Shown here in pieces: positions 1,918 to 4,842 of a stretch of 4,982 nt of DNA. This DNA comes from a phage, in the sequence record PZ049717.1; one strand, written 5' to 3'. Both the position numbers and the translations under genes were made by a program. The notes under the pieces were generated by a model. The model had not been told where the DNA came from and did not search any database. It saw only the letters and a program-made list of their open reading frames with translations. Position 1 is the first letter of the stretch. Each line of letters starts with the position of its first letter.

Positions 1918-2565
1918 ATGTCGCTACGCTCGCAGATACTGGTCAACAAACAAGCACTGCCCACGGCAGAACAGGCGCTGCCCGGCCGCTCGACGGCGAT
2001 GCCGGTCCCGCCGGCGCACCATGTGAACGGCAATCCGCTGCAGCCACCATTCCCGGCCGGCCTGCAACAGGCGGTCTTCGGCATGGGCTGTTTCTGGGGC
2101 GCGGAACGTCGCTTCTGGGAACAACCCGGGGTATGGACGACGGCGGTGGGCTACGCCGGAGGGATTACGCCGAACCCGACCTACGACGAAGTGTGCTCCG
2201 GACTCACCGGTCACACCGAAGCGGTGCTGGTGGTGTTCGACCCCAAGGTGATCGATTACGAAACCTTGCTGCGCATCTTCTGGGAGGCACACAACCCGAC
2301 CCAGGGTATGCGTCAGGGCAACGATGTGGGCAGTCAGTACCGGTCGGCGATCTACTGCATGGACGCGCAGCAGCGCAGCGCGGCCGAAGCCAGTCGTGAG
2401 CGCTTTCAGCAGCGCCTGAGCCATGCGGGCTTTGCGCAGATCACTACCGAGATTGCCGACGCCCCGCCTTTCTACTATGCGGAGGCGTACCACCAGCAGT
2501 ATCTGGCGAAGAATCCAGGAGGTTATTGCGGACTCGGCGGGACCGGCGTCTGCATGCCGGATTGA
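1918..2565 (+). CDS. msrA: peptide methionine sulfoxide reductase MsrA (215 aa)
   Basis: Translation from the ATG at 1918 begins [24 protein letters not shown], closely resembling the E. coli MsrA N-terminus (MSLFDKKHLVSPADALPGR...) as I recall it. It contains the MsrA active-site signature [13 protein letters not shown] (catalytic Cys codon at about nt 2090-2092) and conserved [39 protein letters not shown] and [19 protein letters not shown] blocks. Stop TGA at 2563-2565. The ORF-track start at 1828 adds 30 non-conserved residues and lacks an RBS. Confidence 0.95.
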
Positions 2566-2640: not shown

Positions 2641-2662
2641 AAAAAACCCCGCCGAAGCGGGG
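2641..2662 (-). terminator. Rho-independent terminator read on the - strand (6-bp GC stem, UUCG tetraloop, U6 tail); possibly weakly bidirectional
   Basis: The + strand reads AAAAAA-CCCCGC-CGAA-GCGGGG. The reverse complement is CCCCGC-TTCG-GCGGGG-TTTTTTCTTTCT, a GC-rich perfect 6-bp stem with a TTCG loop followed by a T-tract. On the + strand the same hairpin sits ~80 nt after the msrA stop but is followed by CTCTGCAG, a poor U-tract. Confidence 0.65.
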
Positions 2663-2904
2663 CTCTGCAGACTGAATCCTGACATCCTTGATCGCGCGCC
2701 GTCCTGGCACCGCTCCCTGTGTGGTCCGTGTTGTTTGATCGCGCTTCCTGCGCCACATTCCTGATGCGAAAGATTACTGCCAGGCCTTGTGAGCCAGTAG
2801 TAGCCATTTTACATCACGCTTTGTAGCCTTTTCCTACACCGCGTCATCCATGATGCAGGGCTATAAGTCCAGGCTTACATTGCGCGAGTTTTATGACCTG
2901 AGGC

Positions 2905-2971: not shown

Positions 2972-4750
2972 TCAAAACTGTGCGGCATCCAGCAGGTAGA
3001 GCGACTCGCTGCCGGCCTTGACTGACGCCGTAAGCGAGTGGATGCGCGGCAACATCCGGGCAAAGTAGAAACGCGCCGTGCCCAGTTTGCTCTGATAGAA
3101 ATCGCCCTCGCCCTGCTTCGCCAATGCCACCGCTGCCATGCGCGCCCACATGTAGGCGTACGCGGTGTAGCCGAACACGTGCAGGTACTCGACCGAAGCG
3201 GCGCCGATCTCGTTCGGATTGGCCTTGGCCTGATCGATCACCCAGGCGGTCAGCTCGTCCAGATTGTCCAGCGCAGCCTTGAGGGGCTCGGTGAACTCGC
3301 GCAGATCCGCACCGGCACTGGCGATGAATGCGCGGATCTCATCGACGAACGCCTGATACATGGTGCCGCCGCTGCCGACAATCTTGCGTCCGACCAGATC
3401 CAGCGCCTGGATGCCGTTGGTGCCTTCGTAGATCTGGGTAATACGGCAATCGCGCACCAGTTGCTCCTGGCCCCATTCGCGAATGAAGCCGTGGCCGCCG
3501 AACACCTGCTGACCGTGCACAGTGGTTTCCAATCCCATGTCGGTGAGGAAGGCCTTGGCCACCGGCGTCAGCAGCGCAACTTGCGCCTCGGCCCGCTGCC
3601 GTGCCGCTTCGTCATCGCTGAACTTGGCGATATCGAGCTGCAGCGCGACGTAGCTGGAAAACGCACGCCCACCTTCGTTCAAGGCCTTCATGGTCAGCAG
3701 CATGCGCCGTACATCGGGATGCACGATGATGGGATCGGCGGCCTTGTCCTGCGCCACCGGGCCAGTCGGGGCACGGCTCTGGATGCGCTCGCGAGCGTAC
3801 TCGATGGCGCTCTGGTAGGAACGCTCGCCAGTGGCCAAGCCCTGGATACCGACGCCCAGACGCTCGTAGTTCATCATGGTGAACATCGCCGCCAGACCCT
3901 TGTTGGGTTCGCCGACCATCCAGCCGGTAGCGCCATCGAAGTTCATCACGCAGGTGGCGGAGGCCTGGATACCCATCTTGTGTTCGATCGATCCGCAGGA
4001 CAGCGAGTTGCGCTCGCCCAGCGAGCCGTCGTCGTTGACCAGAACCTTGGGCACCAGGAACAGGGAGATGCCGTGCGAACCGGCCGGCGCATCCGGCAGC
4101 TTGGCCAGTACCAGATGGATGATGTTGTCGGTCAGGTCGTGCTCGCCACCCGTGATGAAGATCTTGGTGCCACTGACCTTGTAGGAGCCATCGGCCTGCG
4201 GCTCGGCCTTGGTGCGGATGATGCCCAGATCGGTACCGGCATGCGGCTCGGTCAGGCACATGGAACCGGACCAGACGCCGGCGTACATGTTCGGCAGGTA
4301 CTTCTGCTTAAGCTCTTCGCTGGCATGGGCGTAGATCGACAAGCAGGCGCCGGACGTCAGCATCGGATACAGACCGAACGCCAGGCTGGCGGAGTTCATC
4401 ATTTCCTCCACCTGCGCCGAGATGACCTTGGGCATGCCCATGCCACCGAATGCCGGGTCACCACCGACACCCACCCAGCCACCTTCAGCGTACAGCTGAT
4501 AGGCCTCGCGATAGCCGGCCGGTGTCGACACCGCACCGTCGTCCCAGCGGCAACCCTCTTCGTCACCACTGCGATTGAGCGGGGCGATGCTGTTGGCGGT
4601 GATCTTGCCGGCCTCTTCGAGGATCGCGTCGGCGGTTTCCGCGTCGACCACCTCGGCCAGGGCTGGCAGCGCCTGCCAGAGCTTCGGCGCATCGAAGACT
4701 TCATTCAGGACAAAACGCATGTCGCGCAGCGGCGCTTGGTAGTCAGCCAT
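2972..4750 (-). CDS. large acyl-CoA dehydrogenase (~592 aa; long-type ACAD with C-terminal extension, FadE/DmdC-like family)
   Basis: Long - strand ORF with high GC3 bias. Preferred start is the ATG at 4750-4748, giving MADYQAPLRDMRFVLNEVFD..., preceded by GAGGAA (4758-4763) 7 nt upstream; the ORF-track start at 4786 adds 12 residues with no RBS. Contains the ACAD catalytic-base region ITQIYEGTNGIQ (YEGT motif), FAD/substrate-fold blocks (CLTEPHAGTDLG, GTKIFITGGEHD, FGGHGF) and a ~130-aa C-terminal extension typical of the ~600-aa ACAD subfamily. Stop TGA at 2974-2972. Confidence 0.92.
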   Translation of the reverse strand: MADYQAPLRDMRFVLNEVFDAPKLWQALPALAEVVDAETADAILEEAGKITANSIAPLNRSGDEEGCRWDDGAVSTPAGYREAYQLYAEGGWVGVGGDPAFGGMGMPKVISAQVEEMMNSASLAFGLYPMLTSGACLSIYAHASEELKQKYLPNMYAGVWSGSMCLTEPHAGTDLGIIRTKAEPQADGSYKVSGTKIFITGGEHDLTDNIIHLVLAKLPDAPAGSHGISLFLVPKVLVNDDGSLGERNSLSCGSIEHKMGIQASATCVMNFDGATGWMVGEPNKGLAAMFTMMNYERLGVGIQGLATGERSYQSAIEYARERIQSRAPTGPVAQDKAADPIIVHPDVRRMLLTMKALNEGGRAFSSYVALQLDIAKFSDDEAARQRAEAQVALLTPVAKAFLTDMGLETTVHGQQVFGGHGFIREWGQEQLVRDCRITQIYEGTNGIQALDLVGRKIVGSGGTMYQAFVDEIRAFIASAGADLREFTEPLKAALDNLDELTAWVIDQAKANPNEIGAASVEYLHVFGYTAYAYMWARMAAVALAKQGEGDFYQSKLGTARFYFARMLPRIHSLTASVKAGSESLYLLDAAQF

Positions 4751-4757
4751 GGCAAGG

Positions 4758-4763
4758 TTCCTC
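4758..4763 (-). promoter_or_regulatory. Shine-Dalgarno (GAGGAA) for the acyl-CoA dehydrogenase
   Basis: The - strand reads GCGAGGAACCTTGCC-ATG, with GAGGAA 7 nt upstream of the ATG at 4750. Confidence 0.55.
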
Positions 4764-4842
4764 GCAAGACACTGGGTTGCAGCCACTGTGGGCCGTTTCC
4801 AGCGAGTCTAACCGAACAACCAGTACAGGATTAAGCGTCTTT

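Follow-up and report, generated by a model that had tools for sequence, protein, structure and literature searches.

It is very probable that the repeated 10-bp word TTGATCGCGC marks two internal segments of a small RNA gene, the minus-strand rsmY of the Stutzerimonas stutzeri group, and that the exact identity of the two segments has no function of its own. The sequence analysed, which is referred to as the window, is the whole stretch of 4982 bp. The identity and the strand of the gene, the structural context of both copies, their lack of conservation and the chance expectation were determined directly, and from these observations we infer that the repeat plays no separate role. The rsmY gene, which had been overlooked in a sequence-only reading of the window, is a true feature of the spacer downstream of msrA. 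The features of the window are compiled in Table 1.

Table 1 Coordinates of the rsmY gene, its parts and its neighbours in the window
Feature	Coordinates	Strand	Evidence
msrA, peptide methionine sulfoxide reductase (215 aa), convergent with rsmY	1918..2565	+	Pfam PMSR, 1e-62
rsmY, RsmY small RNA (~121-125 nt)	2641..2765	-	Rfam RF00195
Intrinsic terminator of rsmY (10-bp stem, UUCG loop, U-run)	2643..2666	-	Terminator scan
UCAAGGAUGU, RNA nt 75-84, perfect RsmE/RsmA optimal site	2682..2691	-	Regular expression on the RNA
Copy 2, GCGCGAUCAA, RNA nt 69-78	2688..2697	-	MFE and consensus fold
Hairpin 2, GUGCC-AGGAC-GGCGC, RNA nt 56-70, GGA motif 5 in the loop	2696..2710	-	MFE, RNAalifold
Copy 1, GCGCGAUCAA, RNA nt 22-31, 5'-proximal	2735..2744	-	MFE and consensus fold
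Hairpin 1, GCGC-AGGAA-GCGC, RNA nt 13-25, GGA motif 2 in the loop	2741..2753	-	MFE, RNAalifold
Putative -10 hexamer TAATCT	2771..2776	-	Read from the sequence
Proximal Gac-box-like palindrome, TGTAGGAAAAGGC-TACA	2822..2838	-	Aligned orthologous spacers
Distal Gac box, TGTAAGCCTGGACTTATA	2862..2879	-	11/12 specified bases of TGTAAGN6CTTACA
Acyl-CoA dehydrogenase gene (FadE-like, 592 aa), upstream of rsmY	2972..4750	-	Pfam Acyl-CoA_dh N, M, 1, C
PAS-GGDEF-EAL protein gene, cut by the window edge			
10-mer word, TTGATCGCGC/GCGCGATCAA			

The rsmY gene and its surroundings

The window contains a single Rfam match, which belongs to RsmY (RF00195), a family of the CsrB/RsmB-type protein-sequestering RNAs (clan CL00106). 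The covariance model aligns over its full length (model positions 1-121 of 121) with positions 2762..2643 of the minus strand, and the score of 102 bits (E=1.7e-24) lies above the gathering score of 57. The 5' end of the gene was placed at A2765, or at 2762 if the start of the Rfam model is followed, and the 3' end falls within the T-run of the terminator. The choice of A2765 as +1 relies on the aligned RsmY 5' ends of other species and on the putative -10 element TAATCT at 2776..2771. The position of this hexamer is occupied by TAATCT, TAGTCT or TACTCT in sister species, and a strict sigma-70 scan found no site. The features expected of an RsmY gene were found, namely the covariance score, the GGA motifs, a Gac box upstream, a terminator on the same strand and orthologues at the same locus.

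In the sequence-only reading, the hairpin at 2643-2666 had been assigned to the upstream plus-strand gene, msrA, and the repeat had been placed just beyond this terminator. This placement goes back to a misread strand. The terminator scan located the T-run of the hairpin on the minus strand, and the hairpin corresponds to positions 98-121 of the Rfam RsmY model, which is its 3' end. Thus, the hairpin ends the same minus-strand transcript that holds both 10-mers, and both copies are transcribed and lie upstream of the terminator of rsmY itself. The supposed spacer beyond the terminator is in fact occupied by rsmY, which is encoded on the opposite strand. On the plus strand, an A-run precedes the hairpin and no T-run follows it; for msrA, the hairpin would be a weak bidirectional terminator at best. 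Two minus-strand open reading frames that extend over the repeat (2444-2758 and 2523-2807) have no Pfam match, cross the small RNA gene confirmed by Rfam and were treated as spurious.

The MsrA protein is identical in many assemblies, GCA_003936085.1 among them, and its cluster is annotated as Stutzerimonas stutzeri (99% identity to the representative). At the position of the acyl-CoA dehydrogenase, a 592-aa gene was called in all syntenic loci. A 598-aa open reading frame on the plus strand (3038-4834) was rejected as a shadow ORF; it runs antisense to the acyl-CoA dehydrogenase gene, has no Pfam match and is of a type that is typical of G+C-rich DNA. In S. azotifigens (L137) and in the Azotobacter vinelandii group (L140), msrA is located beside neither rsmY nor the acyl-CoA dehydrogenase gene, and no match to RsmY was obtained in the 5.6-kb msrA loci of either of them. 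Thus, only part of the Stutzerimonas clade shows the msrA-rsmY-fadE synteny.

By homology with the RsmY of P. stutzeri A1501, GacA would activate rsmY via an upstream Gac box, and the gene would be transcribed from this GacA-box promoter on the minus strand to the terminator at 2643-2666. A Gac box, as it is expected for an RsmY gene, was indeed found upstream of the promoter. The distal box TGTAAGCCTGGACTTATA is the sole Gac-box match in the window when up to two mismatches are allowed, and any match of this kind was obtained in 8 of 200 shuffles. All 18 conspecific contigs carry TGTAAGCCTGGACTTACA with a perfect CTTACA at this position; the C-to-T change of the window (CTTATA) was seen in none of the 18. 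In aligned spacers, the proximal palindrome corresponds to the perfect box TGTAAGCATTGGCTTACA that two other loci carry (L025 and L058). Most relatives have the proximal box TGTAGGAAAAGGCTTACA, and the strain of the window is one T short, a deletion that is common to 4 of the 18 conspecific contigs (L121, L124, L125 and L128). Judged from the two boxes, the activation of rsmY by GacA may be weakened in the window's strain. The rsmY promoter region of this Stutzerimonas clade (L121-L139 and L261-L270) contains two Gac-box-like palindromes at a distance of about 41 bp, whereas RsmY promoters are usually drawn with a single UAS.

Two 11-bp arms that form a perfect inverted repeat (CCGGCTTAATC / GATTAAGCCGG, 2905-2964) flank a 38-nt A/T-rich spacer (TAAAGGCAATATGAAATTATTTGGCCATG...) in the DNA that separates the distal Gac box from the stop codon of the acyl-CoA dehydrogenase gene. 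This spacer is more conserved across sister species (L129-L139) than its surroundings, whereas the arms are only partly kept. The inverted repeat has no Rfam match and no T-run. It may serve the rsmY promoter as an additional site for a regulator, or it may belong to the upstream gene as a 3' element.

Position of the two copies in the RNA

The RsmY RNA contains seven GGA motifs, of which motifs 2 and 5 are located in hairpin loops. By homology with A1501, the RNA would act as a protein sponge whose seven GGA motifs titrate the translational repressor RsmA. The structure was derived from an MFE fold and from a consensus that RNAalifold computed for 29 diverse RsmY sequences, and both agree in hairpin 1, hairpin 2 and the terminator. 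Hairpin 1 (consensus pairs 13:27 to 16:24) is invariant in the 29 sequences, and the stem of hairpin 2 shows compensatory changes at three pairs in the same set.

In the fold, each GCGCGAUCAA comprises G+C-rich nucleotides from the descending strand of a GGA hairpin together with the unpaired linker that follows it, in differing registers. In copy 1, GCGC forms the 3' strand of hairpin 1 and thereby contributes four stem nucleotides, and GAUCAA is a single-stranded linker. The copy runs on into the A/C-rich spacer ACAACAC, and the A-rich run AACAACAC comes after it. In copy 2, G69 and C70 alone belong to the stem of hairpin 2 and the remainder is linker, the last four nucleotides of which (UCAA) are the start of the high-affinity RsmA-type site UCAAGGAUGU. 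This site contains GGA motif 6 and matches perfectly the RsmE/RsmA optimal-site consensus (A/U)CANGGANG(U/A) (PMC6849547; PMC4353343); the consensus of RsmA-type sites has also been given as CANGGAYG (PMC11837529). With four versus two stem nucleotides and with a different downstream context, the two copies are thus not structurally equivalent.

The copies might also serve as paired RNA-level sites for a second factor, for instance Hfq, by which RsmY of A1501 is bound and stabilised (PMC11332353), or as self-complementary GAUC and GCGC elements for RNA-RNA contacts. An Hfq eCLIP peak has been detected on RsmY of A1501 and the half-life of RsmY is shorter in the hfq mutant (PMC11332353), and the A-rich run behind copy 1 also fits such an idea. 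However, the recognition by Hfq has been ascribed to GGA-type motifs and not to this word (PMC11332353). Moreover, conservation of the 10-mer does not extend even to the nearest sister species, and no positive evidence for a second RNA-binding partner emerged from the analysis. Furthermore, a G+C-rich word that is in part base-paired would be an untypical site for Hfq. Such RNA-level sites are therefore considered very unlikely. It is exceedingly improbable that the exact duplication of GCGCGAUCAA is adaptive, be it by providing two equivalent RNA-binding contacts or by providing a 10-bp microhomology for a 47-nt deletion. If this were the case, the contacts for Hfq or another protein would flank the central GGA cluster, and a reversible 47-nt deletion would remove GGA motifs 3-5, thereby tuning the capacity for RsmA titration.

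Chance expectation and conservation of the pair

An exact word search bore out that the window contains an exact 10-bp direct repeat, as the sequence-only reading had reported. On the plus strand, TTGATCGCGC is present at 2688-2697 and 2735-2744, with 37 bp between the copies and 47 bp from start to start. A third copy was not found in the 4982-bp window when up to one mismatch was allowed. It had also been claimed that a 10-mer recurring within 60 bp is uncommon, which does not hold at the scale of the window. The chance model consisted of 1000 dinucleotide-preserving shuffles, in which exact direct repeats of at least 10 nt within 60 bp were counted. Shuffled whole windows (4982 bp) contained on average 0.36 such repeats, and at least one was present in 29% of them. 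Moreover, the window possesses another exact direct repeat of 10 nt, TGCGGCTCGG (4197-4206 and 4242-4251, 45 bp apart), which falls within the coding sequence of the acyl-CoA dehydrogenase. Thus, such repeats arise by chance in this window, and the repeat is not above chance when the window is scanned as a whole. When the shuffles were limited to the 406-bp spacer or to the 123-nt rsmY gene, a repeat occurred in 1.7% and 0.7% of them, respectively; both restrictions are post hoc and had not been set beforehand. The rarity of a 10-mer repeat in shuffles of the gene nevertheless counts against the reading that the identity has no function.

Apart from chance, the sequence-only reading had considered a tandem binding site. 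At such a site, a transcription factor bound to the two TTGATCGCGC repeats would regulate the termination or the readthrough of msrA, or the transcription of rsmY from within. The exact 10/10 identity, the separation of 47 bp, which is about 4.5 helical turns, and the short palindromes GATC and GCGC in each copy would be compatible with such a site. Indeed, the pair resembles operators with direct repeats and iteron-type sites in that two identical short words lie in direct orientation within less than 60 bp. However, in contrast to those sites, it comprises two copies alone, is located inside a transcribed small RNA gene, is not conserved in orthologous spacers and shows no excess over chance at the scale of the window. 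The copies occupy +22..+31 and +69..+78 of the small RNA, whereas the Gac boxes and the -10 element lie upstream. With respect to GATC as a Dam methylation site, pseudomonads are generally regarded as being without Dam.

The distribution of the word elsewhere also speaks against a tandem DNA site. In a set of 140 loci (~1 Mb), 26 Pseudomonas loci contain one 10-mer each, none of them in RsmY, and two copies are present in 8 conspecific loci alone. A scan of metagenomes for pairs with a gap of 20-50 nt yielded 122 pairs on at least 120 contigs among the matches listed. The listed pairs occur at all spacings and in unrelated and apparently coding DNA; a 37-nt gap or an RsmY-like context was found in none of the 122. 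In 95 of the 122 listed pairs, the distance from start to start is a multiple of three, as is expected for coding DNA of unrelated G+C-rich genomes.

The conservation of the pair was evaluated at several distances. A pattern scan with one genome per species listed at least 120 RsmY loci of the Pseudomonas group, and not one copy of TTGATCGCGC was found within RsmY among them. Since the scan was dominated by the P. fluorescens group, loci of sister Stutzerimonas lineages were fetched through homologues of MsrA. This set comprises 10 loci with the same msrA-rsmY-fadE synteny and with MsrA proteins that are 81-91% identical. Six of these loci were scanned against Rfam, and in all six an RsmY match of 80-91 bits lies between msrA and the gene for the acyl-CoA dehydrogenase. 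The exact 10-mer is present at neither position in any of the 10 syntenic sister loci, although the promoter blocks and the GGA motifs are conserved in these lineages. The sister lineages differ by a 1-nt indel at copy 1, where they read GCGCGAAUCAA, GCGCGGAUCAA, GCGUGGAUUAA, GCGCAAACCGA, GCGCGCUCGA or GCGCAAUCGA, and by substitutions at copy 2, where they read GCGCGAUCAU, ACGCGAUCAC, ACGCGAUCAU, GCAAGACCAC or GCACGAUCAC. The linker of copy 1 is not conserved, and the GCGC part of this copy is the invariant stem. The sequence GAUCA(A) ahead of GGA motif 6 is of old origin and is found widely in several clades of Pseudomonas.

The 10/10 match was seen in this species alone, in which it probably arose by a 1-nt deletion from the linker that follows hairpin 1 and by a substitution ahead of GGA motif 6. 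A lack of conservation in close relatives is what the sequence-only reading itself had named as an argument against its binding site, and this is what the orthologous spacers revealed. Of its two options, chance is thus supported by the 29% of shuffled windows and by the missing conservation; a tandem DNA site, given that the copies lie inside a small RNA gene and that the exact pair is gone from all sister lineages examined, is extremely unlikely. However, several sister lineages retain a degenerate form of the word, (G/A)CGCG(N)AUCA, and this counts against the absence of a function. The two linkers may be under some shared constraint, for instance on spacing or composition around the GGA hairpins.

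It is also conceivable that the repeat is the relic of an internal duplication, by which RsmY grew through doubling of a module of GGA hairpin and linker, with the 10-mer as the best-preserved part. The similarity indeed extends beyond the 10-mer to GC-AGGA-(1-5 nt)-GCGCGAUCAA in both places, and Rsm small RNAs are modular. A duplication at the level of whole genes is known for Rsm small RNAs as well, as has been described for rsmX-2 in P. brassicacearum (PMC7911923). However, both hairpins are ancient, being present in each of the 29 diverse RsmY sequences, but in most lineages they show the least resemblance to each other. Moreover, the structural registers of the two copies do not coincide. 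Identity peaks in the terminal species and declines in its nearest relatives, whereas the reverse would be expected if an ancestral duplication were decaying. The present sampling suggests a lower similarity of the two segments at ancestral nodes, and a duplication relic is rated as highly improbable.

Within the species, the exact pair is kept in 18 of 18 conspecific contigs (spacer 97-99% identical), but RsmY is nearly invariant among them, with differences at no more than two positions. None of the polymorphisms in the RsmY body falls into the 20 nucleotides of the repeat, which says little because about 0.5 would be expected. Some natural polymorphisms destroy GGA motifs of RsmY. In five conspecific contigs (L261, L264, L265, L267 and L270), two of which are NCBI assemblies, GGA motif 7 is one G short (CAGGAUU to CAGAUU, orthologous to window positions ~2678-2679). 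One of them (L264) also has GGGGG in place of GGGAG at GGA motif 4 (orthologous to position 2714).

RsmY in the Gac/Rsm cascade

RsmY was compared with the systems of P. stutzeri A1501, P. aeruginosa and the P. fluorescens/protegens group. This gene has in common with the RsmY family the 5' hairpin GCGC-AGGAA-GCGC, the second covarying GGA hairpin, the conserved AAGGAUGUCAGGA block, a strong terminator, seven GGA motifs and the upstream Gac box. It differs from other RsmY genes in that the allele of this species contains GCGCGAUCAA twice. Moreover, hairpin 1 of sister Stutzerimonas lineages has a 7-nt loop, A[U/A]GGAAA, whereas the canonical AGGAA is found here. The repeated word would simply follow from stems that are rich in G+C and linkers that are short.

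RsmY is already known and characterised in P. stutzeri A1501, and the repeat adds nothing to this knowledge. The A1501 rsmY gene is intergenic and located between PST_3857 and PST_3858 (PMC11332353). Its RNA binds RsmA in a GGA-dependent manner with a Kd of about 55 nM, and its expression is reduced in a gacA mutant (PMC8249394). Furthermore, the rsmY rsmZ double mutant of A1501 phenocopies a gacA mutant for biofilm formation (PMC8249394).

The case illustrates that both strands and the known RNA families should be considered first, before short repeats in a spacer are called protein-binding sites. For the organism, the relevant outcome is the gene itself, as rsmY is a key output of the global Gac/Rsm cascade, which in P. 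stutzeri controls biofilm formation and affects nitrogenase activity.
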